A DNA stretch of 64,000 nucleotides from Streptosporangiales bacterium (lineage in GTDB: Bacteria; Actinomycetota; Actinomycetes; Streptosporangiales; WHST01): assembly GCA_050698355.1 (NCBI GenBank), contig JBOHBN010000006.1, forward strand, positions 13,277-77,276, in the 5' to 3' direction. Position 1 is the first letter of the stretch; each line of letters begins with the position of its first letter. Positions 8,838-62,705 of this stretch are shown here, piece after piece. The notes under the pieces are model-generated. The model did not search any database and was not told where the DNA came from. It saw only the letters and a program-made list of their open reading frames with translations. Made by a program: the position numbers and the translations under genes.

Positions 8838-8962
8838 CCGATGACCACGTCGCTCGTTGCCCGAATGACCACGTTATGTGGGGTTGCGCCGCCTTCTCGA
8901 TGCCTGTAGGCCCCGAGAAGGCCGGTTTGGCATCCATAACGTGGTCGTTTGGAGACCGGCGC
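8838..8962 (+). repeat. Family C structured repeat, copy 1 (~125 bp, nested inverted repeats)
   Basis: CCGATGACCACGTC...GAATGACCACGTTATG...GCCTTCTCGATGCCTGTAGGCCCCGAGAAGGC...CATAACGTGGTCGTTTGGAGACCGGCGC. Near-identical to 9322-9443. Confidence 0.85.
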
Positions 8963-9321: not shown

Positions 9322-9443
9322 CCGATGACCACGTCTCTTACCGGAATGACCACGTTATGTGGGGCTGCGTCGCCTTCTCGATGCCTGCAGGCCCCGAGAA
9401 GGCCGGTTTGGCATCCATAACGTGGTCATTCGGAGACCGGCGC
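9322..9443 (+). repeat. Family C structured repeat, copy 2 (~122 bp)
   Basis: Same sequence and orientation as 8838-8962 with a few substitutions or indels. Outer stem AATGACCACGTTATG/CATAACGTGGTCATT, inner stem GCCTTCTCG/CGAGAAGGC, apex GCCTGCAGGCC. Confidence 0.85.
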
Positions 9444-11957: not shown

Positions 11958-12428
11958 GTGGCACGCGTTGACCACGGCATGCCACTTCAGGGAGAGTACG
12001 CACCCAGCCCGTCGGCGTGGGCTCGCGAGCACGCCGAACAGTTCGAGAACTCAGGTGGGACCGAAGCAACGACCCTGCGCGGCATGGCGATCGTGCTGCT
12101 GACTTCGGTCGGGGTCAAGACCGGCAAGCTGCGCAAGACGCCGCTGATGCGGGTCGAGCACGAGGGCCGGTACGCGATCGTCGCCTCGCTCGGCGGTGCG
12201 CCGAAGAACCCGGTGTGGTACCACAATGTGAAGGCCAATCCGCGCGTGGAACTCCAGGACGGGACGACAAAGCGGGACATGCTTGCCCGCGAGGTCACCG
12301 GCGAGGAGAAGGCGGTCTGGTGGGCCCGTGCCGTCGAGGCGTATCCCGACTATGCGGATTACCAGGAGAGGACGAGCCGGGAGATCCCGGTGTTCGTGCT
12401 CGAGCCGAAGGACGGGCGGGCGGTTTGA
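11958..12428 (+). CDS. Deazaflavin (F420H2)-dependent nitroreductase family protein (Ddn-like)
   Basis: [56 protein letters not shown] is the family signature. An alternative ATG start is at 11979. Confidence 0.85.
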
Positions 12429-12429
12429 T

Positions 12430-12491
12430 GATCCGTTTCTCGTGGCCGGAACGCGAAGGTTTCTGCGCGCTACGGCCACAGAAAACGGATC
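12430..12491 (+). repeat. Family A palindromic repeat, copy 1 (hairpin directly after a stop codon, between convergent genes)
   Basis: GATCCGTTTCTCGTGGCCGGAACGCGAAGGTTTCTGCGCGCTACGGCCACAGAAAACGGATC. Outer stem GATCCGTTT/AAACGGATC and a GC-rich inner stem. Confidence 0.85.
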
Positions 12492-12500
12492 ATGGTCAGG

Positions 12501-14947: not shown

Positions 14948-16120
14948 CTACCTAGAACTTCTTAGCAGCTTTGTCGTGACCTCGAGCAGTATGTCGACGT
15001 CGGCGTGCGTGTTGTGACCATGGCACGCCGCGCGAATCCCACCGATACCCGCAACCCCGCGTACGGATACGTGGACTCCCGCGGAGTGAAGTTGATCGAG
15101 GAGCTCGGCCCGGGACTGCCGGCCACCCGGAGGGCTGAACGTGACGATGGCCGAAGGCGAGCCCACGGGCGTCAGAACGTCCTCGACTCCTGACTCCGCC
15201 AGTCCCTCACGCATCCGGTCGGCCAGCGCCCGTGCCGTGGCCTCGACGTGTCCGATGCCCGTTGTCAGCGTCTCGTCGATCGAAGCGGCCAGCCCGACGG
15301 CGCCGAGCCAGTTCGGAGTGCCGCTGATCTCGAACGCGCTGCCGTCCGTTCGTAGCTGTGCCATGTCGAACGCGTCACGCCCGGGGTCGGCGAGATAGAC
15401 GTTCCACCCGCTTCTCGGTGACTCGAGCGCGAAATACCCCTGGTAGGTCGGGCGCAGCTGTTCCCGCAATTCCTCGCTCATCCACAAGAAGCCGGCGCCG
15501 TACGGGTTGCGCAGCCACTTGTGCCCGCCGGCGACGTACGCGGCGATGCCGCTGTCGGCAGGGCGGCGCGCGATGACCCCAGCCTCCTGGATACCGTCCA
15601 CGACCACGTGCGCTCCGACCCGGTGTGCGGCCTCCGCCACGGCGTCCAGATCCACCGGCATCCCGGACACCTCCTGCACGGCGCTGAGCGCGACCACGCG
15701 AGTCCGCGCATCGAGCCTGGCAGCGAGATCGTCGAGGTGCACCGTGCCCCGCCGCGACGGCACCGGGCGAAGCTCGACGCCGCGAGCCGGAGCGTGCCGC
15801 CACACGGTCGTCAGGCCGAGGAATTCGCAGTCCGGGATCACGACGTTGTCCCCGGCTTCCAGTGCGAGCCCGCCTACGAGAATGCCGAGGCCGTGGGTGG
15901 TGCTGTCCACGAGAGTGACCGACTCGCATCCCACTTCCAGCAGTCGCGCGACGTGGGCGCGCGCGTCGTCGCACAGTGCGAGCCACTCAAGCGCCTGCGA
16001 CGTCGCCGATCCGTCCCCGGCGTCACCGAACCGGCTCGCGGCCGCCTGCACCGCCGACACGACGCCGGCGCTCGGCGGGCTCGCGCAGGCGTGGTCCAGG
16101 TAGTGCCAACTGGCTCCCAT
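14948..16120 (-). CDS. Aminotransferase class V-fold PLP enzyme
   Basis: 390 aa. YLDHACASP N-terminus. AAYVAGGHKWL (PLP lysine context). Confidence 0.85.
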   Translation of the reverse strand: MGASWHYLDHACASPPSAGVVSAVQAAASRFGDAGDGSATSQALEWLALCDDARAHVARLLEVGCESVTLVDSTTHGLGILVGGLALEAGDNVVIPDCEFLGLTTVWRHAPARGVELRPVPSRRGTVHLDDLAARLDARTRVVALSAVQEVSGMPVDLDAVAEAAHRVGAHVVVDGIQEAGVIARRPADSGIAAYVAGGHKWLRNPYGAGFLWMSEELREQLRPTYQGYFALESPRSGWNVYLADPGRDAFDMAQLRTDGSAFEISGTPNWLGAVGLAASIDETLTTGIGHVEATARALADRMREGLAESGVEDVLTPVGSPSAIVTFSPPGGRQSRAELLDQLHSAGVHVSVRGVAGIGGIRAACHGHNTHADVDILLEVTTKLLRSSR

Positions 16121-16122
16121 CG

Positions 16123-17586
16123 CTAGTCCGCGCTACCGCCTGCCGCGACGTCCTGCGCTTCGCTCTCCCTTTCGAGCACCTCGCGCTCTTCCTGGAAGGA
16201 ACGTTCGTCCATGTGCTCGCGGCCCCAACCGGTCAGCGTCGCGAAGAAGAAGACGAACATCAGCGCCCAGCAGTACACGACGTACGGCACCAGGTGGACC
16301 GGGTCGAAGCCGGTCAGGTTCGCATCGCGGACCGTCTTGCCGGCGAGCGAGAACGGGATCAGGACGGCCACGCTGTAGGGCACGAAACCGAGGATGGTCG
16401 TCGACGCCGCGTCGAGGATGTTCCCGCGCCGCCACGGCGCGATGCGAAAGGCGTGACCGAGCCGCCTGGCGTACGGCCCGAGCATCACCATCGTCGGAGT
16501 GCCGGCCGTGGTCAGGGCGTTGACGCCGAGCGTCAGCGTATAGATCGTCACTTCCGCGCTGCGCGGGCTGTGGGCGAGGCGGCGGGACCTCTGGATCAGC
16601 CAGTCGATGAGGCCGCCGGCCTGGAATGTGCCGATCATGCCCATCAAGAAGATGGTGAACACCGCGACGCCGACGAAACCGAGGATGCCGTCGATGATCA
16701 CTCCGCCGGCGGTGAAGCTGGAGCTGTCGACGGTGAGCAGGTCCGACCAGCTGAGCAGGCCCGTCACCAGGCCGAGAGCCATGCCGAAGGCGGTGCTGAC
16801 GAGCAGGGATGCGACGAAGTGCCACCGGCGGACCATGAGCACCATCAGCAGTGCTGGGGCGAGCAGCATGATGAGTCCCTGCGGGTCCGCGTCGACGGAG
16901 CCCCGTTCGGCACCGGCCGACCCGAAGATGCCGACGCCGACGTAGACGGCGAGCGTGACGACTCCGGCGACGGCGGCGTATTTCAACCGCGAGCGGACCA
17001 CCTTCGGCACGGTGGTGCCCTGGGAGTAGGCGGACACGATGGTCGTGTCGGAGACGGGCGCGAGGTTGTCACCGACGAAGGCGCCGCCGATGATCGCGCC
17101 GACGAGGAGCAGCGGGTCGGCCCCGATTCCGAAACCGGCGGGGAACAGTATCGGGGTCACCGCGAGGATCGTCCCGATCGAGGTTCCGGTGGAGATCGAA
17201 AGCACGGACGAGGCGAGGAACGTGACCAGCGGGATCCAGGCAGCGGAGAGGCCGATCGACGTCGCGGCCCAGACGAGCCCTTCGATCACGCCGCTTTGGT
17301 TCAGCATCTCGCCGAAAACTCCGGCGAGGAACCATGCGAGCAGGATGACCGCGAGCATCGGCGAGGCGATCCCCGCGATGAGGGCCTCGACGTACGCCTC
17401 CCGGCTCCGGGCGAGCAGAAGCCCGACGAGCAGGCCGAGCAGCACCATCGGCCAGAACGCTTTGGGCAGCGCGAGCCCGTTGAAGCCGAGTACGAGGATG
17501 CCGGCGAGCATCACCGCGAACGGGATGAAGAGCGCGGGTATCCCGCCCCGGAGTCGCAGTGGGGGCGTGGGCGTGGAACTCGTCAT
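16123..17586 (-). CDS. NhaC-family transporter
   Basis: 487-aa polytopic protein with NhaC-like GVFGEMLNQSGVIEGL and repeated G/A-rich TM segments. The next gene starts 2 nt after its stop. Confidence 0.8.
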   Translation of the reverse strand: MTSSTPTPPLRLRGGIPALFIPFAVMLAGILVLGFNGLALPKAFWPMVLLGLLVGLLLARSREAYVEALIAGIASPMLAVILLAWFLAGVFGEMLNQSGVIEGLVWAATSIGLSAAWIPLVTFLASSVLSISTGTSIGTILAVTPILFPAGFGIGADPLLLVGAIIGGAFVGDNLAPVSDTTIVSAYSQGTTVPKVVRSRLKYAAVAGVVTLAVYVGVGIFGSAGAERGSVDADPQGLIMLLAPALLMVLMVRRWHFVASLLVSTAFGMALGLVTGLLSWSDLLTVDSSSFTAGGVIIDGILGFVGVAVFTIFLMGMIGTFQAGGLIDWLIQRSRRLAHSPRSAEVTIYTLTLGVNALTTAGTPTMVMLGPYARRLGHAFRIAPWRRGNILDAASTTILGFVPYSVAVLIPFSLAGKTVRDANLTGFDPVHLVPYVVYCWALMFVFFFATLTGWGREHMDERSFQEEREVLERESEAQDVAAGGSAD

Positions 17587-17707
17587 GGTCGTTCAGCCCC
17601 CTAGACGAGGGATACCAGGAAGAGATGGACTTCTTCACTCTGACTAAATAAGGTCGACCGTAGAGCGCCCATCGTGCCGTGTCAATGACTGCCGTCGGGA
17701 GGACGCG

Positions 17708-18280
17708 ATGGCCGAAGCGAAGAACGCGGGGCAGGGCGACCATGTCGTGGAGATGCGCATCCGTGCGATCCGGACCGAGCGCGGAATCACGCTGACCGAG
17801 CTGGCGGACCGTACCGCTCTGTCCGCGGGCCTGCTCAGCCAGGTGGAACGGCGCCGGACCAACCCCAGCCTGGAAACGCTACGGCGCATCGCCCGCGTGC
17901 TCGAGGTGCCCATCTTCGATCTGTTCGACGCGGAGGCGAATCCGAACGCGGCGGTGGTGCGCCGTAGTCGGCGCATGCTGGTGCGTTCCCCGCATGGCGG
18001 CATCACCTACACGCGGGTGTCGCCTGGCACCGGTCGGCTCGAGGTGCTCGAAGGCACGCTGGAGCCGGGCGGTGCCTCCTCCGCCGACCCGTGGAGCCAC
18101 CCCTCCGAGGAATGCGTCGTGGTGCTGGAGGGACTGCTCGTCGTTGAGATCGGTGACGACACCTACGAGCTCGCGGCCGGTGACAGCTGCTACTTCGACT
18201 CCCGCCGGCTGCACCGCTACCGCAACCCGACCGACCGGCGGGTGTCCTTCCTCCTGACCGTGACGCCGCCCAGCTATTGA
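17708..18280 (+). CDS. XRE-family HTH regulator with C-terminal cupin domain
   Basis: IRAIRTERGITLTELADRTALSAGLLSQVERRRTNPSLETLRRIARVLEV HTH, plus cupin (GDSCYFDSRRLHRYRN). Confidence 0.85.
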   Translation: MAEAKNAGQGDHVVEMRIRAIRTERGITLTELADRTALSAGLLSQVERRRTNPSLETLRRIARVLEVPIFDLFDAEANPNAAVVRRSRRMLVRSPHGGITYTRVSPGTGRLEVLEGTLEPGGASSADPWSHPSEECVVVLEGLLVVEIGDDTYELAAGDSCYFDSRRLHRYRNPTDRRVSFLLTVTPPSY

Positions 18281-18335
18281 TCGTCTCGCAGGGGCGTATC
18301 CTTTTAGGCATAGTGAAACCGGCGAGAGGCGTGCG

Positions 18336-19487: not shown

Positions 19488-19557
19488 GGCGGGCACGGGC
19501 GCCAGCGGTCGTGCATCCGAAGTTCGGCACATATGTGCGGCACGCCGCATCGGGCGT

Positions 19558-19683
19558 ACTTCCCACGATGAGTTCCTGCTCGGCCGAGGCCCCTACCAAG
19601 ATCCGTTTCTTCCGGCCGCGACGCGCAGGTTTCTGCGCGTTGCGGCCACACCGAACGGATCTTGACCTGATCATTTTGGGCTG
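19558..19683 (+). repeat. Composite repeat: family B left flank + family A palindrome (copy 2, 19598-19663) + shared right flank
   Basis: ACTTCCCACGATGAGTTCCTGCT ... AAGATCCGTTTCTTCCGGCCGCGACGCGCAGGTTTCTGCGCGTTGCGGCCACACCGAACGGATCTT ... TGATCATTTTGGGCTG. Lies between convergent genes. Confidence 0.8.
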
Positions 19684-19724: not shown

Positions 19725-22088
19725 CTAGGTGGGGCGCCAGCGGTCGTGCCGGACGCCGGGGCCGCCCTCGCGTACCAGCTGGAGACGCGGCTTCGGCCCT
19801 TCCATACGCCCGGTCTGTGGCTTGCGCCGGCCGGACCGCCACGGCAGCGGCCAGCGGGCGCCGGGCCCGTCGTAGTCCTGCTCCACTGCGGCATGCAGCG
19901 TCCAGTTGGGGTCGTACAGGTGAGCCCTGGCCAGCGCACACAGATCTGCCCGCCCGGCGAGGATGAGGGAGTTGACGTCGTCGTAGGACGAGATCGCTCC
20001 GACCGCGACGGTGGCGACGCCCACCCGGTTGCGGATCGCGTCGGCGAACGGGGTCTGGAAGGACCTGCCGTATGCCGGCTGCTCGTCGGGCGTGACCTGC
20101 CCGGCTGACACGTCCACGGCATCCGCGCCCGCGTCGGCGAAAGCTTGGGCGATCAACACCGCGTCGTCGGCGTCGATGCCGCCCTCGACCCAATCGGTGG
20201 CCGAGATGCGCACGGTCATCGGCTTGCCCTGTGGCCACACCCCACGCATCGCGGCGAAGACCTCGAGCGGGTAGCGGAGCCGGTTCTGCAACGAGCCGCC
20301 GTACCGGTCGGTGCGGTGGTTGGTGACAGGAGAGATGAAGCTGGAGAGCAGGTAGCCGTGAGCGCAATGCAGCTCGACCAGGTCGAGGCCCGCACGTTCG
20401 GCGCGTCTCGTGGCGTCGACGAACTCCTGCTCGATCCCCTCCAAGTCCGCGCCCGTCAGCTCGCGCGGCACCTGGTTGACGCCCGGCTGGTACGCGAGCG
20501 GCGACGGCGCCACGACCTCCCAGTTGCCGTCAGGCAGCGGCTGGTCGATGCCCTCCCACATCCGTTTGGTGGAGCCCTTCCGGCCGGAGTGGCCGAGCTG
20601 CATCCCCACCTTGGCGTCAGTCTGTTCGTGTACGAAGTCGGTGATCCGGCGGAAGGCGGTCACGTGCTCGTCGGCGTACATCCCGCAGCAGCCAGGGGAT
20701 ATGCGCCCCTCGGGTGAGACGCAGACCATCTCGGTCATCACCAGACCGGCGCCGCCGAGTGCCTTACCGGCAAGGTGCGCGAAGTGGAAGTCGCCGGGTG
20801 TCCCGTCCTGGGCCACGTACATGTCCATCGCCGAGACGATGACGCGGTTGGCCAGCTCCAGCTCGCGCAGGCGGAACGGCTGGAACATCGGCGGGCGTAC
20901 GTCACCCGGCGCCATGCCACGGCGGTGCTCGTGCGCGGCGAACCAGGCGTCGGCGTGCTCGACGAACTCGTGGTCGCGGACGCGCAGGTTGTCGTAGGTG
21001 ACCCGGCGGCTGCGGGTGATGATGTTGAACGCGAACTGGGAGGCGTCCTGGTGCAGGTACTGGCCGAGGTTCTCGAACCACTCCAGGCTCGCCTGCGCTG
21101 CCCGCTGCGTGGACAGCACGACCGGCCTGCGCTCGGTCTCGTACGCGGTCAGCGCCGCCTCGACGCCGTCCTGCTCGTGCAGGCACGCCGCGAGTGCCAG
21201 TGCGTCCTCCATGGCGAGCTTGGTGCCCGAGCCGATGGAGAAGTGCGCGGTGTGCGCGGCATCCCCGAGCAGTACGACGTTCCCGTGCCGCCAGCACTCG
21301 TTTCGTACGGTTGTGAAGCTGATCCACTTGGAGTTGTTGGTGATCACCTTGTGACCGTCGAGGACGTCGCTGAACATCTCCCGCACGATCGCAACCGACT
21401 CCTCGTCCGACTCACCCGGCCGCAGGTCGGTGTCGGCGACCCGGTCGAAGCCCGCGGCGTGCCAGACGCCATCGTGCATCTCCACGATGAACGTGCTGCC
21501 GTGCGTGTCGTACGGGTACCCGTGGGTCTGCATGACACCGTACGGCGTCTGCCTGATGTAGAACTTGAACGCGTCGAACACCCGGTCGGTGCCGAGCCAC
21601 ATGTAGCGGCACTGCCGTACGTCCAGCGTGGGCTGGAAGGTGTCCGCGTAGCGGGCGCGGGTGGCGGAGTTGGCGCCGTCGCCGGCGACGACCAGATCGT
21701 GGCTCGCCGCGATCGTGGCCACGTCGGGTGCTTCGGTGAGAAAGTGCACGGTGATCCCGAGGTCGCGGCACCGCTCCTGCAGGATCTCGAGCAGCCGACG
21801 CCGGCTGATCGCGGCGAACCCGTGGCCGCCGCTGGTGATCACCTCGTCCTTGACGTGGACGTCGATGTCGTCCCAGTGGGCGAACTCGGCTCGCATCGCC
21901 GCGTAGACCGCCGGGTCGGCGTGCTCGATACCACCGAGGGTCTCGTCGGAGAAGACGACGCCGAAGCCGAACGTGTCGCAGGCGGCGTTGCGTTCCCACA
22001 CGGTGATCTCGTGCTGAGGTCCTAGCTGCTTGGCAAGCGCGGCGAAGTACAGGCCACCTGGCCCGCCACCGATCACGGCGATACGCAC
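19725..22088 (-). CDS. Bifunctional aryl-CoA hydroxylase/reductase: N-terminal FAD monooxygenase fused to C-terminal OYE-like NADH:flavin oxidoreductase (salicylyl-CoA 5-hydroxylase / 2-aminobenzoyl-CoA monooxygenase-reductase family)
   Basis: VRIAVIGGGPGGLYFA dinucleotide fold. GDAAHTAHFSIGSGTKLAMEDA. C-terminal OYE half (ELHCAHGYLLSSFISP). GTG at 22088 preferred because GGGAGG lies 6 nt upstream; the ORF is open to a TTG at 22139. Confidence 0.9.
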   Translation of the reverse strand: MRIAVIGGGPGGLYFAALAKQLGPQHEITVWERNAACDTFGFGVVFSDETLGGIEHADPAVYAAMRAEFAHWDDIDVHVKDEVITSGGHGFAAISRRRLLEILQERCRDLGITVHFLTEAPDVATIAASHDLVVAGDGANSATRARYADTFQPTLDVRQCRYMWLGTDRVFDAFKFYIRQTPYGVMQTHGYPYDTHGSTFIVEMHDGVWHAAGFDRVADTDLRPGESDEESVAIVREMFSDVLDGHKVITNNSKWISFTTVRNECWRHGNVVLLGDAAHTAHFSIGSGTKLAMEDALALAACLHEQDGVEAALTAYETERRPVVLSTQRAAQASLEWFENLGQYLHQDASQFAFNIITRSRRVTYDNLRVRDHEFVEHADAWFAAHEHRRGMAPGDVRPPMFQPFRLRELELANRVIVSAMDMYVAQDGTPGDFHFAHLAGKALGGAGLVMTEMVCVSPEGRISPGCCGMYADEHVTAFRRITDFVHEQTDAKVGMQLGHSGRKGSTKRMWEGIDQPLPDGNWEVVAPSPLAYQPGVNQVPRELTGADLEGIEQEFVDATRRAERAGLDLVELHCAHGYLLSSFISPVTNHRTDRYGGSLQNRLRYPLEVFAAMRGVWPQGKPMTVRISATDWVEGGIDADDAVLIAQAFADAGADAVDVSAGQVTPDEQPAYGRSFQTPFADAIRNRVGVATVAVGAISSYDDVNSLILAGRADLCALARAHLYDPNWTLHAAVEQDYDGPGARWPLPWRSGRRKPQTGRMEGPKPRLQLVREGGPGVRHDRWRPT

Positions 22089-34433: not shown

Positions 34434-35726
34434 ATGTCGGTCGACGAGCTGCTCGCCCGCCGCGCACGCCACTTCTCGAAGGCCATGTCGGTGCACTACG
34501 CCAACCCGATCGAGGTGGTGCGCGGCCAGGGTGCCTACCTGTTCGACCCGCAGGGCCGGGAGTACCTGGATTGCATCAACAACGTGGCGCACGTGGGCCA
34601 CGCCCACCCCAGGGTGGCCGAGGCCGCGTACGAGCAGCTGCGCGTGCTCAACACCAATACCCGGTTCCTGTACGAGCAGCTGGTCGACTACGCCGAGCGC
34701 CTGACCGCGCTGCTGCCCGAGCCGCTCAGCACGTGCTTTCTGGTCAACTCCGGCAGTGAGGCCAACGAGCTTGCGCTGCGGCTTGCCCGTACCCACACCG
34801 GTCGCCGTGGCGTGGTCGTGCTCGAAGGCGCGTACCACGGCAACACCACATCGCTCATCGACCTGAGCCCCTACAAGTTCGACGGGCCGGGCGGCGAGGG
34901 CCGGCAGGCACACGTGCAGGTCGCGGCGACACCGGACCCGTATGGCGGGCGCTATGGCGGAGACGACAGCGGCCAGGCGTACAGCGCCGACGTCGCCGCC
35001 GCGCTCGAGCGGGGCGCCGCGGCGGGACACCCGGCGGGTGCGTTCTTCGCCGAACCGCTGCTCGGCTGCGCGGGCCAGGTCGAACCGCCGCCGGGATACC
35101 TGGCGGGGGCGTTCGCGGCCGTTCGGGCGGCCGGCGCTGTGTGCGTCGCCGACGAGGTCCAGGTCGGCTTCGGCCGGGTGGGCGACCGGTTCTGGGCGTT
35201 CGAAACGCAGCAGGCCGTGCCGGACATCGTCACGCTCGGCAAGCCGATCGGCAACGGTCACCCGCTCGGTGCAGTGGTCACCACTCCGGAGATCGCGGAG
35301 TCGTTCGCGAACGGAATGGAGTACTTCAACACCTTTGGCGGCAACCCGACATCGTGCGCGATCGGCCGTACGGTGCTCGACATCATCGCCGACGAGGGCC
35401 TGCAGGATCATGCCCACGCCGTGGGGAACCGGCTGGTCGCCGGCTTCACCGAGCTGGCCGAACGGCACCAGGTCATCGGCGACGTCCGCGGGCGCGGACT
35501 GTTTCTCGGTGTCGCGCTCGTCAGCGACCGGGATACCCGCGCGCCGGCCGCCGACGTCGCGAGGTCTCTCGTACGCAGGCTCCGTGACGAGCACAGGATC
35601 TTGCTGTCGGTCGAAGGGCCGGGAGACAACGTATTGAAGCTCAAGCCACCACTACCGTTCTCCGTTGCGGATACCGACCGCTTGGTTGCCGCCGTCGACC
35701 GTGAGCTGGAAAGCCGCGCGCTGTAA
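34434..35726 (+). CDS. Class III PLP aminotransferase-fold enzyme of the AGXT2L (phospho-lyase) type
   Basis: ATG directly follows the kinase stop. [57 protein letters not shown] (PLP Lys). Confidence 0.85.
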
Positions 35727-35746
35727 TGCCCTGTCACCATTGGGGC

Positions 35747-36592
35747 ATGCAGCTCGAGGAACGGTTCGCCTGGCGTGGCCGCGAGGTCGCCTGGGGCAGG
35801 TCCGGCAGCGGCCCGGCGCTCGTGTTCTGTCACGGCACTCCCTGGTCGTCAGTGGTCTGGGAACCCTTCGCCGACGCGTTGGCGGGGGAGTTCACCGTGT
35901 ACCTGTGGGACATGCCCGGGTACGGCAGGTCTTCCAAGCATGCCGAGCACGCTGTCGACCTCGGTGTGCAGGGAGAGCTGCTGGCCGAGCTGTTCCAGTA
36001 CTGGCAACTGGACGCACCGCACGTCGTCGCCCATGACTACGGCGGCGCTGTGTCGCTGCGCGCGCGGCTGCTCCATGGAGCGGCGTACTCGTCGCTGTGC
36101 CTGGTGGATGTGGTTGCGCTCCGGCCCTGGGGCTCGCCCTTCTTCACCCTGGTCAAGGAGCACGCCGAGGTCCTCACGCAATTGCCGCCTGCCGTGCACC
36201 GCGGGGCGCTCGAAGCCTACGTCGCTGGCGCGAGCCACCGGGGGTTGCGTGACTCCGCGCTGCGGCAGCTGACCGAGCCGTGGGTGACCGGCGACGGCCA
36301 ATCGGCCTTCTACCGGCAGATCGCGCAGGCCGACGAAGCCCTGACCGCCGAGGCCGAGCCGCTGCTCGGTGAACTCGCCGTACCCACCCATATCGTCTGG
36401 GGCACCGAGGACACCTGGATCCCCGTCGACCGCGCCGAACGGCTGCGCCAGGCGATACCCGGCTCCACGGTGTCACTCATCCCCGAGGCAGGTCACCTCA
36501 TCCAGTACGACGCGCCCGTCGCGTTGGCCAGCGACCTGCACGGTTGGCTGACCGAGCGCGCGTACGTCGCGAGCGGTGTCGCCGACCGGTGA
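35747..36592 (+). CDS. Alpha/beta hydrolase
   Basis: PALVFCHGTPWSS...VVAHDYGGAV (nucleophile elbow with Asp, haloalkane-dehalogenase / epoxide-hydrolase-like)...EAGHLIQYD. Confidence 0.85.
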   Translation: MQLEERFAWRGREVAWGRSGSGPALVFCHGTPWSSVVWEPFADALAGEFTVYLWDMPGYGRSSKHAEHAVDLGVQGELLAELFQYWQLDAPHVVAHDYGGAVSLRARLLHGAAYSSLCLVDVVALRPWGSPFFTLVKEHAEVLTQLPPAVHRGALEAYVAGASHRGLRDSALRQLTEPWVTGDGQSAFYRQIAQADEALTAEAEPLLGELAVPTHIVWGTEDTWIPVDRAERLRQAIPGSTVSLIPEAGHLIQYDAPVALASDLHGWLTERAYVASGVADR

Positions 36593-36616
36593 ACGGCGGC
36601 GTTGGCGTGACAGGCT

Positions 36617-36913
36617 GTGGCCATGTCCGATTCTTCGCGTTCTCAGCCCTTGGTGCTGACCTTCGGTCACGACGAGCTGATCATCCGCAGGCGCTACGAA
36701 GTCATGAGCATCATCAACGACATCCTCGTCGCTGTGTGGTTCCTGATCGGCAGCGTGTTCTTCTTCTACGAGAGCCTGGTCACCGTCGGTACGTGGCTAT
36801 TCGTGGCAGGCAGCGTTGAGCTGATGATCAGGCCGGTCATCCGGTTGTCGCGGAAGATGCACCTGCAGCGCAAGGGCAGCGCCTCCCCGGTGGCGAGCTC
36901 GCAGGATTTCTGA
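36617..36913 (+). CDS. YrhK-like small membrane protein
   Basis: RRRYEVMSIINDILVAVWFLIGSVFFFYESLVTVGTWLFVAGSVELMIRPVIRL: two TM helices in the YrhK pattern. Confidence 0.6.
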   Translation: MAMSDSSRSQPLVLTFGHDELIIRRRYEVMSIINDILVAVWFLIGSVFFFYESLVTVGTWLFVAGSVELMIRPVIRLSRKMHLQRKGSASPVASSQDF

Positions 36914-36950
36914 TCACCCGGGCAGTAGAAGGGGCGGGGACAAGTAGGGA

Positions 36951-37406
36951 CTAGGCCACCCTGCCGTTCCACAGCCACGACATGCCCGGAACCGTGCCCG
37001 GTGGGTCAGCAGGGTGCCACGCCACGGCGGTGGGTCGGTGCCCGGACTGGACGAACTCGTCCACCGCGACACGGGCGACCGTCACCGGGATGGCCTCTTC
37101 GGCCAACACGGCCCTGTCCAGGCCGCGGTCGGTGAAGTCGTAGCTGCCGAGCGCCGTCGGCACGGTGCCGGTGCTGACCATCACAGGCCCGGCTGCCGCA
37201 TTGTCGGTGAACCGCAGTGAGCTGAGGTCATCGCGGCCCAGCGCGACCTGCAACATGGCGCCGTCGCCGCCGGAGATCTCGACCCAGGCCGGCCCGCCGA
37301 CAGCGGCGAGCGCGTCGAGCCACGCGTGGAGTTCCACCAATGTGGCCACCTCGCGCCGCTGGATACCGTCATCGACCGTGACTGGATCCTTCACCGTCTC
37401 TCCCAA
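36951..37406 (-). CDS. Hypothetical protein, possibly Imm1-family immunity protein
   Basis: LVELHAWLDALAAVGGPAWVEISGGDGAMLQVALGRDDLSSLRF...EEAIPVTVARVAVDEFVQSGHRPTAVAWH resembles, from memory, actinobacterial Imm1 proteins (conserved C-terminal Trp). No toxin gene is adjacent. Confidence 0.35.
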   Translation of the reverse strand: MGETVKDPVTVDDGIQRREVATLVELHAWLDALAAVGGPAWVEISGGDGAMLQVALGRDDLSSLRFTDNAAAGPVMVSTGTVPTALGSYDFTDRGLDRAVLAEEAIPVTVARVAVDEFVQSGHRPTAVAWHPADPPGTVPGMSWLWNGRVA

Positions 37407-37512
37407 TGTCGCCGTGTGACAACAATACGCGACTGCCTGACTGCAGGGCGTACACCCACCCGTGTGTCGCGGTGGGCGCGGCGCGGGAGTTCCTGGGTGA
37501 TGGAATAGCCGA

Positions 37513-37968
37513 GTGACGCCGCGAAGGCCGCTTGTCCCGCCGGGGTCCGAGCCGCCAGGCCCTCCCGCTCATCCCAGGTTCCGGTTCGAGCCACTCGGGC
37601 CGGACCACAACGCGGCCGACCTGGAGGCGTGGTCCTCGTCCATCGATCACATTCACGCGACGCCGGGGTTCCGCCCAGACGGGTGGCCGGAGCGGCCGTA
37701 CACGCTCCCCGAGAACCTAACCGACCTGGAGGAGCATCGCGATCGGCACCAGCGCGGTCTCGACTTCGCGTGGACCGTGCTCTACCCGGACGACGGAACC
37801 GTGCTCGGGTGCGTCTATCTGAAGCCCGACCCCACCGAGGCAGCTGACGCGGCAGCGCGCTCCTGGGTCCGTGCAGACCACGCCGAGCTCGACAGCGAGC
37901 TGCGTGCGCACCTGCGTCCGTGGTTCGCGGGGTCGTGGCCCCTGACGATCCGCTACGCGGCCGGGTAG
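37513..37968 (+). CDS. GNAT-like N-acetyltransferase-fold protein
   Basis: FRFEPLGPDHNAADLEAWSSSIDHIHATPGF...WP...NLTDLEEH...FAWTVLYPDDGTVLGCVYLKP matches a recurrent actinobacterial GNAT-like family. From memory only. Confidence 0.5.
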   Translation: MTPRRPLVPPGSEPPGPPAHPRFRFEPLGPDHNAADLEAWSSSIDHIHATPGFRPDGWPERPYTLPENLTDLEEHRDRHQRGLDFAWTVLYPDDGTVLGCVYLKPDPTEAADAAARSWVRADHAELDSELRAHLRPWFAGSWPLTIRYAAG

Positions 37969-38151
37969 CACGGCATTCGTCGTCGGAGCAGGTACGGCAC
38001 ATCTCCCTCGCAGGGAGGGGCCGCTGACTACAGCGGGTGATCCGCCGGGTCGCCGCGACCCTCACCGGCTACCGCGCCAGTTCGCGCCATACCACCTGCG
38101 GCTGGACTGGCTGATGTGGCTGGCGGCGCTGTCGCCCCCGCAGGCGAGACC

Positions 38152-38217
38152 AAGATCCGTTTCTTCCGGCCGCAACGCGCAGAAACCTGCGCGTCGCGGC
38201 CACGCGGAACAGATCTT
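38152..38217 (-). repeat. Family A palindromic repeat, copy 3 (inverted relative to copies 1, 2 and 4)
   Basis: AAGATCCGTTTCTTCCGGCCGCAACGCGCAGAAACCTGCGCGTCGCGGCCACGCGGAACAGATCTT. The central loop reads CAGAAACCTG rather than CAGGTTTCTG. Confidence 0.85.
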
Positions 38218-38273
38218 GACCGGGGACCTGTATGACCGGTTTGCACGCCCAGCGGCGCCCAACCAGGCGGACG

Positions 38274-38335
38274 GACTCAGCTCCTGCTTCCCATGGCCTG
38301 CAGGTCGTGGGAAGCAGGAACTCATCAAGGAAAGT
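38274..38335 (-). repeat. Family B hairpin repeat, copy 1 (inverted relative to copy 2)
   Basis: Reverse complement reads ACTTTCCTTGATGAGTTCCTGCTTCCCACGACCTGCAGGCCATGGGAAGCAGGAG. Stem TCCTGCTTCCCA/TGGGAAGCAGGA, apex CCTGCAGG. Confidence 0.8.
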
Positions 38336-38580
38336 AGCCTGCTTTCGGGCAGTGACTACGGCGCCCTGGTCGGATGACGTGGTGGCGAGGAGCTCGCTGC
38401 CGTCGGCGGTGACGAGCGCCGTGTCGGAGATCGGGTACGTGCCGATCTGCTGGTCGATGACCCACGACTGGACCAGCTGCGCCGAGTAAGGGGGTGTCCT
38501 TGCAAGTAGTACCGCGCGCTGCCAGTGAACTGGGTGGGGTCCACCCCGGGGAGTTTCCCACAGTACGACGCCGGTGAGAC

Positions 38581-42522: not shown

Positions 42523-43518
42523 TCACGGCCGTACCACCGACTTGACCGTACGGGCGTCGTCGCTGGCGGCGATCGCGTCGACGACACCGTCGAGTGAGTA
42601 ACGACCGGTGACCATGCCGTCGAGGTCAACCGCCCCGGAGGCGGCGAGTTCGATGGCGGTCGGCCAGGTGTTGGCGTAGCGGAAAGTGCCGCATACGGTC
42701 ACCTCGCGCTGCTGCACCGCGGCGGTGGGCAGCGAGACGGTGTCGGCACCCAGCCCGACCAGGACCGCGCGGCCACCCGGGCGTACCGCAGCGACTCCGG
42801 CTTGCACGGCCCCCGCGGCACCCGAACAGTCGATGAACGCGCCCGGGCGTACGTCGGCGACCGCGGCGTCCGCGGGGCGGGTCTCCGTCGCGCCGAGCCG
42901 CCCCGCCGAGTCGAGTCGCTCGGCGGCGATGTCGGTGACCACGACCGTGGCCGCACCGGCGGCGCGGGCCGCCTGGACGGTGGCGATCCCGATCGGGCCC
43001 GCGCCAGCGACCAGTACCCGCGATCCGGTCGTGACCGCGGCCTTGCGGCACGCCCAGATTCCGACGGACAACGGCTCCAGCAGCCCGGCGGCGTCATCGG
43101 ACACGCCTCCGGGCACCGCGTAGGTGAAGTCGGCGTCGTGGGCTACGTACTCGCAGAACGCGCCGTCAACCGGTGGCGTCGCGAAGAACCGGACCTGTGG
43201 GCACAGGTGGTAGCTGCCAGTACGACACTGCTCGCAGCGGCGACACGGCACACCCGGCTCGAGCGACACCCGGCTGCCGAGCCGTTCAGGGTCCGCGCCC
43301 GGGCCCACCGCGACGATGGTGCCGCCGGCCTCGTGCCCCAGGATCAGCGGTTCGCGCACCACGTGCTCGCCGATACGGCCATGCCGGTAGTAGTGCACGT
43401 CCGAACCGCACAGGCCGACGGAGCCCACGCGTACGAGCACCTCGCCACGGCCGGGCTCGGGAACCGGACGGCTCTCCACGACCAGATCGCCGACGCCACG
43501 CAGCACCGCGGCACTCAT
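42523..43518 (-). CDS. Zinc-dependent MDR alcohol/polyol dehydrogenase (sorbitol / L-idonate dehydrogenase-like)
   Basis: GLCGSDVHYY...GHEAGGTIVAVG...CRRCEQCRTGSYHLC...VAGAGPIGIA. Start MSAAVLRG (GGAG 4 nt upstream) preferred over the ORF start at 43560. Confidence 0.9.
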   Translation of the reverse strand: MSAAVLRGVGDLVVESRPVPEPGRGEVLVRVGSVGLCGSDVHYYRHGRIGEHVVREPLILGHEAGGTIVAVGPGADPERLGSRVSLEPGVPCRRCEQCRTGSYHLCPQVRFFATPPVDGAFCEYVAHDADFTYAVPGGVSDDAAGLLEPLSVGIWACRKAAVTTGSRVLVAGAGPIGIATVQAARAAGAATVVVTDIAAERLDSAGRLGATETRPADAAVADVRPGAFIDCSGAAGAVQAGVAAVRPGGRAVLVGLGADTVSLPTAAVQQREVTVCGTFRYANTWPTAIELAASGAVDLDGMVTGRYSLDGVVDAIAASDDARTVKSVVRP

Positions 43519-43628
43519 CGTCTCCGGCACGGATGCCTGCGCTGCAACGACCATGCCCATACCTTTTCACGCCTGAGCATTGACCGTACGGTGATGCCAA
43601 TCGTGCACGGCGGAGTTGGAGGACGCAG

Positions 43629-44909
43629 ATGGCAGGCGCTGGGAACGAGACGGTGTTCACGTGGCGCGCGCCGGCGGTGAAGTTCGGTCCGGGCGCGGTC
43701 GGTGAGGTCGGTCATGACGTCGCGGCGCTTGGGTGCCGGCGCGTTCTGGTGGTGACCGACCAGAGGGTCGCGGCGACGGGCGCCGCGGGCCGTGCCACCG
43801 AAGCAGTCCGTCAGGCGGGTGTGGACGCGACCGTGTACGCCGATGTGCATATCGAGCCGACCGACGTGGGCGTGCGTGCGGCGGCCGACGCGGTGCGCGA
43901 CGGCGGCTGGGACGGTTTCGTCGCGGTCGGCGGTGGCTCGGTCATCGACACCGCGAAGGCGGTGAACTTGCTGACGCACGTCTCGGGTGACCTGCTTGAT
44001 TACGTGAACGCCCCGATCGGGGGCGGCCGGTCGCCGGAGAACCCGCTGGCTCCGCTCGTCGCCGTGCCCACGACGGCGGGCACCGGAGCGGAATGCACGG
44101 CGGTGTGCGTGGTCGACCTGCTCGAGCAGCACGTGAAGAGCGGCATCAGCGATGCCGCACTGCGCCCGGCGCTGGCGGTCGTCGATCCCGAGTTGACGCT
44201 GTCGCTGCCGCCGGAGGTCACCGCTGCATCCGCGTTCGACGTGCTGTGCCACGCGCTGGAATCCTACACCGCCCGGCCCTACAGCGATTTTCCCAGGCAC
44301 GCACCGGAGGCGCGGGTCGCGTACTGCGGTGCCAACCCTGTGTCGGACCTGTGGATCGAGCGCACGATGCCGTTGCTGGCCCGTTCGGTACGCACGGCGG
44401 TCGCCGACGGCTCGGACCTTGCCGCCCGCACCGACCTGCACCTGGCGGCGCTGTTCGCGGGAATGGGGTTCGGCAACGCGGGAGTGCACATCCCGCACGC
44501 GTGCGCGTACCCGATCGCGGGTCGTGTCCGCGAGTACGTGCCCAACGGATACCTCACCGACAGCCCTCTGGTGCCACACGGGCAGTCGGTGGTGCTGACC
44601 GCGCCGGCCACGTTCGCCCGCACCTTCGCGTCCAGCCCCGACCGGCACGCGTGGGCGGCGACGACGCTGGATCCGTCGGTGGCGGACCTGCCGGACAAGT
44701 CCAGCTGGCTACCGACTGCGATCAGGCGGCTGATGCGCGACACCGGCGTGCCCAGCGGTCTCGTCGATGTCGGCTACGGCGAAGCCGACATCGACGGGCT
44801 CGTCGAGGGAGCGCTCGCCCAGCAGCGCCTGCTCGGCCTCGCTCCCGTACCCGTCGACGCGGATCTGCTCGCGGAGGTCTTCCGCTCGTCCATCCAGCCC
44901 GTCGGCTGA
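43629..44909 (+). CDS. Iron-containing alcohol dehydrogenase (hydroxyacid-oxoacid transhydrogenase-like)
   Basis: VAVGGGSVIDTAKAV...VPTTAGTGAECT...NAGVHIPHACAYP. Confidence 0.9.
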   Translation: MAGAGNETVFTWRAPAVKFGPGAVGEVGHDVAALGCRRVLVVTDQRVAATGAAGRATEAVRQAGVDATVYADVHIEPTDVGVRAAADAVRDGGWDGFVAVGGGSVIDTAKAVNLLTHVSGDLLDYVNAPIGGGRSPENPLAPLVAVPTTAGTGAECTAVCVVDLLEQHVKSGISDAALRPALAVVDPELTLSLPPEVTAASAFDVLCHALESYTARPYSDFPRHAPEARVAYCGANPVSDLWIERTMPLLARSVRTAVADGSDLAARTDLHLAALFAGMGFGNAGVHIPHACAYPIAGRVREYVPNGYLTDSPLVPHGQSVVLTAPATFARTFASSPDRHAWAATTLDPSVADLPDKSSWLPTAIRRLMRDTGVPSGLVDVGYGEADIDGLVEGALAQQRLLGLAPVPVDADLLAEVFRSSIQPVG

Positions 44910-44940
44910 CACCCGAACGCTCCGTGCCGATGCCCAGAGC

Positions 44941-45006
44941 AAGATCCGTTTCTCCCGGCCGTAACGCGCAGTTTCCTACGCGTTACGGCCATGCGGAACG
45001 GATCTT
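44941..45006 (+). repeat. Family A palindromic repeat, copy 4
   Basis: AAGATCCGTTTCTCCCGGCCGTAACGCGCAGTTTCCTACGCGTTACGGCCATGCGGAACGGATCTT. Lies after the ADH stop and abuts a truncated regulator remnant. Confidence 0.85.
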
Positions 45007-45022
45007 CACCGGGAGGTCTATA

Positions 45023-45412
45023 CGAGAATTTGGCGTTGATGTCGCGCTCGCCGAGATCGCCGATCAGCTCAACGAGGCGCAGCCCGGTGATGTCGAGGCG
45101 TCGGTGGCGGCCTGGTTCGACCACTACGAGCGGTACGGCGACCTGGTGGTACGCAACCTCGCCGACGAGGCCGATCCCGCGGTGGCCGAGACCGTCCGCA
45201 CCGGCCGGAAGCGCCACCGCCAACGGGTGGTGCGGCAGTTCGCGCCGCAGCTGACGCGCGTACCCGAGCATGCCGTGACGCGGCTGGTCGACGGGCTCGT
45301 CTGTGCGTGTGATGTCTACACCTGGAAGCTGCTGCGACGCGACATTGGCCGGTCACGGGAGCGGGCCGAAGCCACGATGTGCCAGACGGTTCGGGCGCTG
45401 CTGGGAGAGTGA
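45023..45412 (+). pseudogene. TetR-like regulator remnant lacking the N-terminal part of the HTH
   Basis: FGVDVALAEIADQL... then a ligand-domain-like tail ending CDVYTWKLLRRDIGRSRERAEATMCQTVRALLGE (the F.TW..L motif of one TetR subfamily, from memory). No in-frame start and no intact helix-turn-helix upstream; the repeat occupies that space. Confidence 0.35.
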
Positions 45413-45413
45413 G

Positions 45414-46389
45414 ATGCGGTTCTTGTTCACCACCTGGTTCGGAGCGGGCAACCAGGTACCGACGATCGGGCTCGCGCAGAAGCTCGCTGCCCGCGGCCGT
45501 GACGTTTGCATCGCCGGGTACGCGAGTCAGCGCTCGCGGTTCGAAGGGCTCGGATTCGAGGTCACCGTCCTGGAGCGGCGCAGAGAACGACTACCGCGCG
45601 AACACGCCGCCCGAGCATGTGATCGCCGAGCTCGTACGCGGCGTCTGGGCCAGCCACGAGCAGGTGCTCGACATCCGTGAGTTGCTCGACCGGCAACGCT
45701 GCGACGTCGTCGTCGCCGACTGCATGATGTTCGGCGCGCTCGCCGTACTCGGCGGGTTCGGGTGCCGACCGCCGTGCTCGTGCACAGTGCACCCGGCGCG
45801 CTCATGCCGCCGGGCGGTCCCGGTGAGCCGCTCGTACTCGCACCGGTCAACGAGCTGCGCACCGCCACCGGCTGCGCGCCGGTCGACAGCCTCTGGTCGG
45901 CCTGGGCACCGTTCCCCACCCTGTGTGCGACCATTCCCGCCCTCGATCATCTGGCCACCGAGGTGCCGCCGTCGTTTCACTACGTCGGCCCGTTCTTCGA
46001 GCGCACAGAGCCGTCCACGCCACTGCCGTGGCCGCTCGGTGACCCGCGTCCCCTGGTCATGGCGAGCGTTTCCACCGGGTACGCGTGGGACCAGAGGTCG
46101 CGCCTCGACCGGACGCTCGAGGGGCTGGCCGATGCCACCCGCTACCGTGACCCACGCCGGTCACGGCACACTCGCGGCGTCCCTCGCGCACGGCATTCCA
46201 ATCGTGGCGTTGCCGAACCCCGCGGCCGACCAGCCGGCGCTGGCCGCGCGGGTCGCCGAGCTCGGCGCGGGTGTCGCCCTGGACGGCGAGGCCGCCACCC
46301 CGACGGAGATCCGAGCCGCCGTCGACACCGTGCTCGCTTCTGGCAGCTACAGCGCGGCCGCCGACCTGGTCGAGCGCATTGGGCGTTGA
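45414..46389 (+). pseudogene. GT1-family (MGT/UDP-glycosyltransferase-like) gene with multiple frameshifts and a deletion
   Basis: Pieces sit in different frames: MRFLFTTWFGAGNQVPTIGLAQKLAARGRDVCIAGY...; ...EHVIAELVRGVWASHEQVLDIRELLDRQRCDVVVADCMMFGALA; MPTAVLVHSAPG...FHYVGPF...; ...TVTHAGHGTLAASLAHGIPIVALPNPAADQPALAARVAELGAG. Confidence 0.6.
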
Positions 46390-48373: not shown

Positions 48374-48386
48374 GCCTTGACAGCCA

Positions 48387-48473
48387 ACTTCCCACGGTGA
48401 GTTCCTGCTTCCCACGGCCTGCAGGCCATGGGAAGCAGGAAATGAGTTACATACCGTGATCATTTCGGGCTGG
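48387..48473 (+). repeat. Family B hairpin repeat, copy 2, with both shared flanks
   Basis: ACTTCCCACGGTGAGTTCCTGCTTCCCACGGCCTGCAGGCCATGGGAAGCAGGAAATGAGTT...TGATCATTTCGGGCTG. Confidence 0.8.
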
Positions 48474-48511
48474 CTCACCGGCGGCGCGGGCGGGTCGAGC
48501 TGGGAGGCGAG

Positions 48512-54956: not shown

Positions 54957-55775
54957 TCAGTTGAGCGCGAGTGCGGCGTCCGGCTCGAGTACGCGGAACG
55001 TGAAGCTCTCCTCAAAGTAGAGTTGCACCGCGTCGCTGTCGTGGTGGCTGTAGCCGACGGAGATGTCCTGGCCGACGTCGAGCAGGAAGTCGCCGCCCCT
55101 CTCGCTGACCACCACGGCGCCGTCCACGCCGGGAGCCCACAGGATGCTGCCGCCGACGACCTGCTTGAGATGGTCGAAGAGCAGGTGGCCGCCGTGCTCG
55201 GCGGTCTGGATGATCCTGGTGTACCCGGCCGGGCCGATGGCGAGCGCGTACGGCCCGACGATGCCGTTGCACCGCAGCTGGTCGACGGCGCGGGCCACCA
55301 CACCGGGGTACGCGTCGCAGTCGTCGCCGAGCGTGCCCGACCCGTACGGTGAGGCCTGCGCGATGCCGGTGATGCCCGCGGCCGCCCAGCCGTGGAACAC
55401 CGTACGGTTCTCGACCTCGGCGACCTTGCCGGCGGCGCGGGCGAGGTCGTCGAAGTCCGGGTCGCTCGCACCGCGCTGCAGCTCGTCGATCTCCTGCCTG
55501 CTCACTGTGAACGGCACCGTGTACTCGGCGAGCGGCAGCACGCGGCGCTGCTTGGCGGTCACCCCGTCCGTGCTGATGCCCGGCGGGCCGTCGAGCGCGG
55601 TGGTGCGCCCGAGCGACACCGACGACTGCTGCCAGCCGCTGGGGCCCTTCCAGTCGGCCAGCTTGCGGGCGGCGAGCAGCGGTGTGAGCCGTTCGCGTGC
55701 CTCGTCGTCGATCGCTTGCCACGCCACTGTCGGGATGGGCGCGAGGCCACGAAGAAGGTGGTCGCCGGCACTCAC
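54957..55775 (-). CDS. Family 1 encapsulin nanocompartment shell protein (linocin M18 / Cfp29 type)
   Basis: 272 aa, GTG start. Colinear with the M. tuberculosis Cfp29-type sequence from memory (LAPIPTVAWQAIDDEA..., VPFTVSRQEIDELQRGASDPDFDDL, GPYALAIGPAGYT, WAPGVDGAVVVSERGGDFLLDVGQDISVGYSHHDSDAVQLYFEESFTF). Confidence 0.9.
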   Translation of the reverse strand: MSAGDHLLRGLAPIPTVAWQAIDDEARERLTPLLAARKLADWKGPSGWQQSSVSLGRTTALDGPPGISTDGVTAKQRRVLPLAEYTVPFTVSRQEIDELQRGASDPDFDDLARAAGKVAEVENRTVFHGWAAAGITGIAQASPYGSGTLGDDCDAYPGVVARAVDQLRCNGIVGPYALAIGPAGYTRIIQTAEHGGHLLFDHLKQVVGGSILWAPGVDGAVVVSERGGDFLLDVGQDISVGYSHHDSDAVQLYFEESFTFRVLEPDAALALN

Positions 55776-55782
55776 TTGCGCT

Positions 55783-60979: not shown

Positions 60980-61076
60980 CCGCATCCGGTTACCGTGATC
61001 ATCGGCGTATCGGGCACGGTTCGGCGCGAGCCGTGGCCGGAATGACGATGATCGCCGCGGAGGGGCGACCGGTGGC

Positions 61077-62614: not shown

Positions 62615-62705
62615 ACCAAGGGGATCATTCGTTCTCCGACAGTCGAGGCCCCCCCACCTGCAGCGATAGCGTCTCGGCTGTTCAGCTAGGAATGATCCCC
62701 TTGGT
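62615..62705. repeat. 91-bp element bounded by 16-bp perfect inverted repeats
   Basis: ACCAAGGGGATCATTC (62615-62630) ... GAATGATCCCCTTGGT (62690-62705). Lies between the ureC stop and the sulfatase start. Confidence 0.6.

Follow-up and report, generated by a model that had tools for sequence, protein, structure and literature searches.

The window, by which we mean the whole 64-kb stretch of DNA analysed here, is ordinary chromosomal DNA (~69% GC) from a Streptosporangiales metagenome-assembled genome (MAG), to whose proteins those flanking the repeats are 100% identical, and is full of catabolic genes. The cumulative GC skew of its + strand is positive throughout. Among conserved syntenic genes we found four copies of a short palindromic repeat, family A, spaced 7-18 kb apart:

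12428-12493, + strand: copy 1, running ATGATCC...GGATCAT
19598-19663, + strand: copy 2, nested in a degenerate unit of a second repeat, family B
38152-38217, + strand: copy 3, with direct outer arms and a flipped 34-nt core
44941-45006, + strand: copy 4, a clean insertion in comparison with the relative's contig L144

Two further features of the window lie apart from these repeats. A 106-nt direct repeat (8857-8962 and 9338-9443, 93% identical, 481 nt apart) surrounds an ABM monooxygenase gene, and at 54957-56361 an encapsulin shell gene (Linocin_M18) directly adjoins a hemerythrin gene, the two being a probable cargo pair.

The four copies had been predicted at these positions, and the alignment, a half-site pattern and a covariance model all recover them, copy 1 being best bounded as 12428-12493 instead of the earlier 12430-12491. 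They align without gaps over 66 columns with a mean column identity of 89%, and their pairwise identity is 82-89%, so that 11-18% of positions differ. The half-site pattern GATCCGTTN6GGCCGNNRCGCG matches all eight arms in the window, where 0.08 matches are expected by chance, and a 19-nt left-arm pattern gives four matches against 0.06 expected. The covariance model built from the four copies recovers exactly these four in the window, with 84-93 bits on the + strand and 70-74 bits on the - strand, while the next-best matches (20-24 bits) are hairpins of a different repeat. That all four score higher on the + strand has a chance probability of 0.125. By their sequences, the four copies evidently share a common origin. 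The two-fold-symmetric repeat contains the conserved blocks GATCCGTT and GGCCG, and its ends read (N)ACC-AAGATCCGTT ... AACGGATCTT-(N)ACC; the terminal sequence for comparison with the ends of insertion sequences (IS) is AAGATCCGTTTCT. All copies lie outside the open reading frames (ORFs) supported by third-position GC (p ~4e-4 for four random 66-nt windows), at distances of 1, 110, 183 and 31 nt from the upstream stop codon (copies 1, 2, 3 and 4), and the genes beside them have no functional theme in common.

Each copy folds into a 10-bp outer stem (AAGATCCGTT), a 6x6 internal loop, a 15-bp GC-rich inner stem and a 4-nt loop, in agreement with the original prediction of one long interrupted hairpin with an outer and an inner stem. 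The folding energies are -39 to -52 kcal/mol as RNA (z -7 to -11) and -24 to -32 kcal/mol as DNA. The arms are complementary at 25 of 31 positions, standard pairs occupy 94% of the pair cells in the four-copy alignment, and two double (compensatory) changes, at pairs 2-65 and 22-45, preserve the palindrome. Covariation as a sign of selected structure was rejected, as it was no better than in shuffled controls for these four sequences and 2 pairs. The wobble and mismatch positions of the RNA fold speak for the + strand in copy 2 but for the - strand in the other three copies. Because neither strand's RNA fold is consistently the better one, we infer that family A functions as DNA, in the form of a hairpin or cruciform.

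The asymmetric centre of the repeat occurs in both orientations:

19614-19647: copy 2 core, made up of the inner stem and the GTTT loop, 34 nt, 100% identical to 38201-38168, inverted
38168-38201: core of copy 3, 34 nt, the exact reverse complement of the copy 2 core

Copy 3 had been described as inverted, in view of its loop (GTTT versus AAAC). This is correct for the central 34 nt, which match copy 2 at 34/34 positions when flipped and at 28/34 when read directly, but not for the rest of the copy: the outer 32 nt, which include the asymmetric internal loop TCTTCC/ACRCSG, match at 29/32 positions directly and at 21/32 flipped, and the 3-4 nt flanks (ACC...GACC) are direct as well. From what is generally known of palindromes, the flip of copy 3 would best be explained by an exchange between the two arms, through either recombination or a replication template switch.

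Contigs of relatives, fetched through their proteins, have 86-90% DNA identity to the window (Logan SRR13588879, ERR6509xx-ERR6510xx); the MAG GCA_009379825.1, ~77% identical, served as a more distant relative. A presence/absence comparison at the orthologous sites, which the original prediction had put forward as a check, found all four sites without the repeat in the nearest relatives, and no family A copy occurs in ~71 kb of the relatives' loci. Three of the four sites differ from the relatives by more than the element, so that the insertion is inseparable from other rearrangements there.

At the copy 4 site, contig L144 carries, in this order, an iron-containing alcohol dehydrogenase gene (Fe-ADH; hydroxyacid-oxoacid transhydrogenase), a 111-nt spacer, an intact gene for a 186-aa HTH regulator and an intact GT1 glycosyltransferase gene. 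Window positions 42526-44916 align to L144 416-2806, and 45033-46147 to L144 3091-4209. In the window, the genes downstream of the spacer differ from those of L144:

45020-45412, + strand: 5'-truncated HTH (TetR-like) regulator remnant, matching the intact L144 protein (186 aa) over residues 63-186; HTH and promoter lost
45303-46389, + strand: gene for a GT1 glycosyltransferase, interrupted by frameshifts but intact in L144

Copy 4 starts 31 nt after the Fe-ADH stop codon and landed in a co-directional spacer upstream of the regulator gene, not at a convergent junction. Once the palindrome is taken out, the sequences to its left and right can both be aligned with the L144 spacer, and therefore the inserted unit is just the 66-nt palindrome. 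The empty site in L144 reads GACCGTACCGG; ~10-12 nt of this target (GTCGGCGACCGT, itself a mini-palindrome) were lost from the window at the insertion point. A separate deletion of 213 nt, at a GYGTT microhomology 16-35 nt downstream of copy 4, removed the promoter and the first ~60 codons of the regulator gene. The truncated TetR-like gene noted beside copy 4 in the original prediction is thereby borne out, the alignment to L144 placing the truncation at its 5' end; its TetR_N match is below threshold (17 bits versus a cutoff of 24). The GT1 gene is split over three frames with 12 gap positions relative to the L144 gene; it is a pseudogene, or else the gaps are indels of the assembly.

Copy 2 lies between a convergent class-V aminotransferase gene (+ strand) and a gene for an FAD-monooxygenase/OYE fusion protein (- strand). 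The same two genes overlap in contig L139 and are 13 nt apart in L140, so that there is no spacer at the copy 2 site in these relatives. The window differs from them by a composite insert and its surroundings:

19497-19514, + strand: left copy of an 18-nt direct duplication (GGGCGCCAGCGGTCGTGC), single in L139 (1532-1549)
19515-19731: composite insert of 217 nt (family-B unit plus copy 2), absent from L139 and L140
19558-19591, + strand: family-B left module (ACTTCCCACGATGAGTTCCTGCT) with a remnant of the B loop, directly left of copy 2; z 9.9 against the intact family-B copy B2
19665-19683, + strand: family-B right module (ACC-TGATCATTTTGGGCTG), directly right of copy 2; z 5.1 against B2
19732-19749, + strand: right copy of the 18-nt duplication, flanking the composite insert
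38275-38341, - strand: family-B copy B1, 57 nt right of copy 3
48381-48475, + strand: family-B copy B2, an intact unit with no family A in it, which stood in for an 'empty' B unit

Since the flanks of copy 2 match the family-B modules on both sides, copy 2 lies inside a family-B unit, where it replaces the B hairpin. The rest of the 217-nt insert is not derived from the flanking genes. We considered the 18-nt duplication as a target duplication of family A and rejected it, because it flanks the whole composite of B and A and so belongs to the composite. It lets the formerly overlapping convergent genes each retain their 3' end, and its length exceeds what transposases usually duplicate. Upstream of this site, ~3.3 kb of the window (15009-18311, with a second class-V aminotransferase, an Na+/H+ antiporter and an HTH-cupin regulator) are absent from L139, in which the cyclase gene directly adjoins the aminotransferase gene.

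Family B is a second repeat of ~100 nt, in which the motif TTCCCACG stands in direct and inverted orientation, together with a hairpin (TCCCACGGCCTGCAGGCCATGGGA) and, on the right, the module ACCGTGATCATTTCGGGCTG; its degenerate copy in the window spans 19558-19683. Two of the three family-B copies in the window carry or adjoin a copy of family A. Unlike family A, family B is also found in a relative of ~86% identity (L142 579-655 and 9551-9585). In L144, the spacer that precedes the intact TetR-like gene has, at 2845-2880, the sequence CCTTCCCACGAGAATTC, which resembles the family-B left module, and TTCCCACG might be a regulatory motif. Another motif, ACCGTGATCAT, recurs at several intergenic hairpins and repeat ends (60991-61060, 48455-48466 and 19665-19676, and L142 560-600). 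A further long intergenic palindrome lies at 62615-62705, with a 16-bp outer stem (ACCAAGGGGATCATTC/GAATGATCCCCTTGGT) and a DNA fold z of -5.1; its left end, CCTACCAAG..GATC..CGTTCTCCG, resembles the left end of copy 2, in an alignment that is not significant (p 0.02-0.08).

As judged from the alignments with the relatives, the sites of copies 1 and 3 are junctions at which gene content changes or DNA has been deleted. Copy 1 takes up the spacer of 72 nt that separates an F420H2-dependent quinone reductase gene (+ strand, stop codon 12426-12428) from a TPP-enzyme gene (- strand, stop codon 12501-12503). At this position contig L113 has an aldo-keto reductase gene and an HTH_31 gene (~2 kb) instead of the palindrome, while L110 and L140 have yet other neighbours. 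The homology to L113 ends on the left just before the reductase's native TAG stop; the window's reductase gene continues for three codons (RAV) to a TGA that abuts copy 1. On the right, the TPP stop codon and ~8 nt are retained. The earlier statement that copy 1 starts 1 nt after a stop codon is thus accurate as to the distance, but this stop is not the ancestral one of the gene, whose native stop was displaced.

At the copy 3 site, L142 and L146 have intact, convergent genes for an LMF1-like protein and an M24 peptidase, 3-23 nt apart. The window retains 92 nt of the former and 109 nt of the latter:

38055-38146, + strand: LMF1-like gene remnant, ~27 codons of 480; homology ends 5 nt before copy 3
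38364-38473, - strand: M24 peptidase/creatinase gene remnant, last ~33-38 codons; intact in L142 and L146

The gap between them is filled by copy 3, a 57-nt stretch and family-B copy B1. Three copies had been placed between convergent genes in the original prediction; this stands for copies 1 and 2, whose neighbours are intact, whereas copy 3 lies between the remnants of two genes. The surrounding region (37472-38575) is a remnant-rich patch, in which the LMF1-like and M24 genes are reduced to remnants of ~100 nt and the MarR gene of L146 is missing. It also holds a gene for a 151-aa acetyltransferase (37513-37968) that is present in the window only and has an Imm1 immunity gene (36951-37406) as its neighbour. 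An independent Logan contig, L145 (SRR27067734), is 99.97% identical to window positions 35219-38172 and ends 21 nt inside copy 3. It reproduces the left junction of copy 3, and this junction is therefore not a chimera of the MAG. The break of L145 inside the copy could reflect the repeat copies, a drop of coverage at the hairpin or a mixed orientation of the core in the population.

Our data suggest that family A is a small non-autonomous mobile DNA element, a 66-bp imperfect palindrome that is moved in trans, and we give this reading a probability of about 0.7. The REP/MITE-like mobile repeat of the original prediction thus holds, on the strength of four of four sites without the repeat in the nearest relatives and one clean insertion of the palindrome only. 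An enzyme encoded elsewhere in the genome would copy the palindrome to new intergenic places, and the element would have spread in this Streptosporangiales lineage after its split from the ~88% identical relatives. Insertion would tend to occur in or beside hairpin-forming DNA, such as the family-B hairpin, the GGTCGGCGACC mini-palindrome and 3'-3' gene junctions, and would usually bring, or precede, a loss of neighbouring sequence; both the preference for hairpin DNA and the accompanying loss are what the four sites suggest. The flanks read TACC|GACC at copy 2, GACC|GACC at copy 3 and GAGC|CACC at copy 4. There is no unambiguous target-site duplication at the copies, NACC being perfect at copy 3 only. 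A 14-nt conserved 'left extension' of family A, taken from an 87-nt alignment, was discarded, as it is derived from family B at copy 2, from the LMF1-like gene at copy 3 and from the spacer at copy 4.

As to the enzyme, we tentatively consider a single-strand hairpin mechanism like that of REP/REPIN or IS200/IS605, with which the missing clean duplication, the common orientation of the copies and the hairpin targets would agree. An ordinary MITE moved by a DDE transposase, with a 3-4 bp NACC duplication, is nearly as likely. Discrete unit, flanks, hairpin targets, orientation and adjacent loss fit the REP/IS200 kind slightly better than the DDE MITE, four copies being too few for a decision between the two. 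In line with the absence of a RAYT-like transposase gene noted in the original prediction, Pfam scans of the 56 ORFs of the window found no such gene, and no transposase, integrase or Y1 HUH protein at all. Nor did we find a parent IS with matching ends, neither in the window nor in plasmid records, which gave chance matches only, nor in phage records, which gave none.

Searches beyond the window gave no further copy among the matches listed. In species-representative genomes, GATCCGTTN6GGCCGNNRCGCG had at least 109 matches, all to a single arm and attributable to chance, and BLAST of these loci revealed no true copy. In JGI metagenomes, the exact pattern of left arm and both inner arms had 0 matches, and an inner-hairpin-only pattern had 25 matches, all of them unrelated hairpins; an exact-pattern scan of IMG/VR for family A gave 0 matches. 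BLAST of plasmid and phage records found nothing at E <= 1e-3 and, at E <= 10, only chance matches of ~20-35 nt in plasmids and none in phages. A Nonomuraea hairpin from the plasmid records that shares ACGCGCAGGTTTC was rejected as a family member, as it is without matching arms. In Rfam, no gathering-level match was found in the window, and below the threshold there was only generic or miRNA-hairpin noise. Extrapolating from four copies per 64 kb, one may speculate that the genome holds hundreds of copies; those known are four, from one 64-kb window.

Alternatively, the repeats might be retained as RNA elements, either factor-independent bidirectional terminators or 3'-end stabilisers, with their spread being secondary, a view that is compatible with mobility. 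The high stability of the hairpins, the position of copies 1 and 2 between convergent intact genes at 1-110 nt past the stop codons, and the palindromy preserved through two double changes would agree with such a role. We nevertheless regard it as unlikely, because the relatives have no spacer at the same junctions, copy 3 sits among gene remnants, and copy 4 occupies a co-directional spacer upstream of a regulator promoter. In particular, the bidirectional terminators of the original prediction are not supported: neither strand has a T/U tract after the stem (no T run within 10 nt), a terminator scan called none of the four copies, and there is no consistent strand preference, since the strand favoured by the wobbles and mismatches differs between copy 2 and the other three. 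The symmetry of the repeat with its conserved GATCCGTT and GGCCG blocks could also point to binding by a dimeric protein, for which the palindrome would be conserved as a regulon operator or as a site that organises the nucleoid. This would be highly improbable, as 66 bp far exceed typical operators, the copies lie at gene 3' ends or among pseudogenes and not at promoters, the neighbouring genes lack a common functional theme, and close relatives keep the genes at the orthologous sites without the palindrome.

The synteny breaks at the copies invite two further explanations. The palindrome may be filler DNA captured during end-joining repair of chromosome breaks, so that its copies would mark old break or deletion scars: deletions or breakpoints in gene content are found at three of the four copies, a clean duplication is missing, another deletion (213 nt, GYGTT microhomology) lies 16-35 nt from copy 4, and Ku/LigD end-joining is common in Actinobacteria. 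Yet filler DNA would have had to supply the same discrete 66-nt unit with the same ends each time, from one abundant donor and with the outer arms of all copies in a common orientation, and the insertion of copy 4 is nearly precise; we therefore consider this origin very unlikely. An artefact (assembly chimera or adapter) or a local segmental duplication is barely credible, even though the source is a MAG and synteny is broken where the copies lie. With differences at 11-18% of positions and no more than 3-4 nt of flank in common, the copies are not adapters or duplicated segments; the only identical word long enough for contigs to be wrongly joined is the 34-nt core that copies 2 and 3 have in common, and the copy 3 junction is reproduced in the independent assembly L145.

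Much work has been done on the small palindromic repeats of Proteobacteria and Firmicutes, and we found no description in the literature of a small palindromic repeat family of such kind in high-GC Actinobacteria. Family A provides an example that is dated and restricted to one lineage, has real empty sites, is nested in another repeat at one place and shows its core in both orientations. Finding its enzyme would show how such elements move in Actinobacteria, and the family may reveal whether they drive local gene decay, as seen beside copies 3 and 4. For annotation, family A accounts for spurious ORFs over 38062-38377 and for places where contigs break off in assemblies of short reads. A more far-reaching possibility, to which we assign little likelihood, is that family A, together with family B and perhaps the 62615-62705 palindrome, belongs to a hairpin-targeting and hairpin-copying mobile system undescribed in Actinobacteria, which would insert into hairpins without duplication, produce the flip/flop core through its copying chemistry, seed nearby deletions and gene loss (TetR-like, LMF1, M24) and depend on an enzyme type not yet linked to such repeats.

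Among known systems, REP and REPIN sequences moved by RAYT (Y1 HUH) transposases have been described for Pseudomonas and Enterobacteria (PMC3116915, PMC3337134, PMC2817692). Like these, family A is a short extragenic imperfect palindrome with a long bulged hairpin, dispersed and non-coding, without an obvious target duplication, with a lineage-specific sequence and a proposed movement in trans. REPs are tagged by a conserved GTAG or CGTC tetranucleotide at one end (PMC3733652), whereas the ends of the four family A copies have no conserved GTAG/CTAC or CGTC/GACG. Unlike a REPIN, which consists of two inverted REP hairpins around a spacer, the whole family A unit is one hairpin, and its 31-nt halves do not fold alone into REP-like stems. 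REP/REPIN sequences usually exceed 100 copies per genome, whereas family A is known from 4 copies in 64 kb, and no RAYT gene accompanies it among the 56 ORFs of the window. The REP/RAYT literature that we found describes no such system in actinobacteria, the host group of family A.

Bacterial MITEs such as Correia, RUP, ERIC and Nezha (reviewed in PMC3184786) share with family A the terminal inverted repeats, the small size, the intergenic position and the nesting in another repeat, as well as filled versus empty orthologous sites (copy 4 versus L144, copy 2 versus L139/L140). With 66 bp, family A is very small even for a MITE, and its inverted repeats abut around a 4-nt centre; a target duplication would be imperfect and span no more than 3-4 bp (NACC), and no parent IS was found. 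SPRITE of Streptococcus pneumoniae, a dispersed repeat resembling a Rho-independent terminator (cited in PMC3184786), is likewise a dispersed hairpin after genes, but family A has no T-tract and no strand preference. The PATEs derived from IS200/IS605 resemble family A in being hairpin-based, in not requiring an inverted-repeat/duplication signature and in inserting strand-specifically next to a short target motif, which we count as a likeness; they differ in having distinct left and right subterminal hairpins around a core, where family A is one single hairpin.

Palindromic hairpins in flip and flop states are known from parvovirus ITRs and poxvirus telomeres, and inversions arise via inverted repeats or quasi-palindrome template switching. 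Family A resembles such isomers in that its asymmetric centre occurs in both orientations (copy 2 versus copy 3, 34/34 flipped). The flip/flop systems are replication termini or mutational events, whereas the two states of family A are found at two different chromosomal loci. An integron attC site was rejected by the criteria of R''(RYYYAAC)...R'(GTTRRRY) core sites, a cassette array and a nearby intI: the order GTT...AAC in family A is the reverse of that in attC, and the window has neither a cassette array nor an integrase. Family A is a new sequence family of a kind, REP/REPIN or MITE, that is already known.
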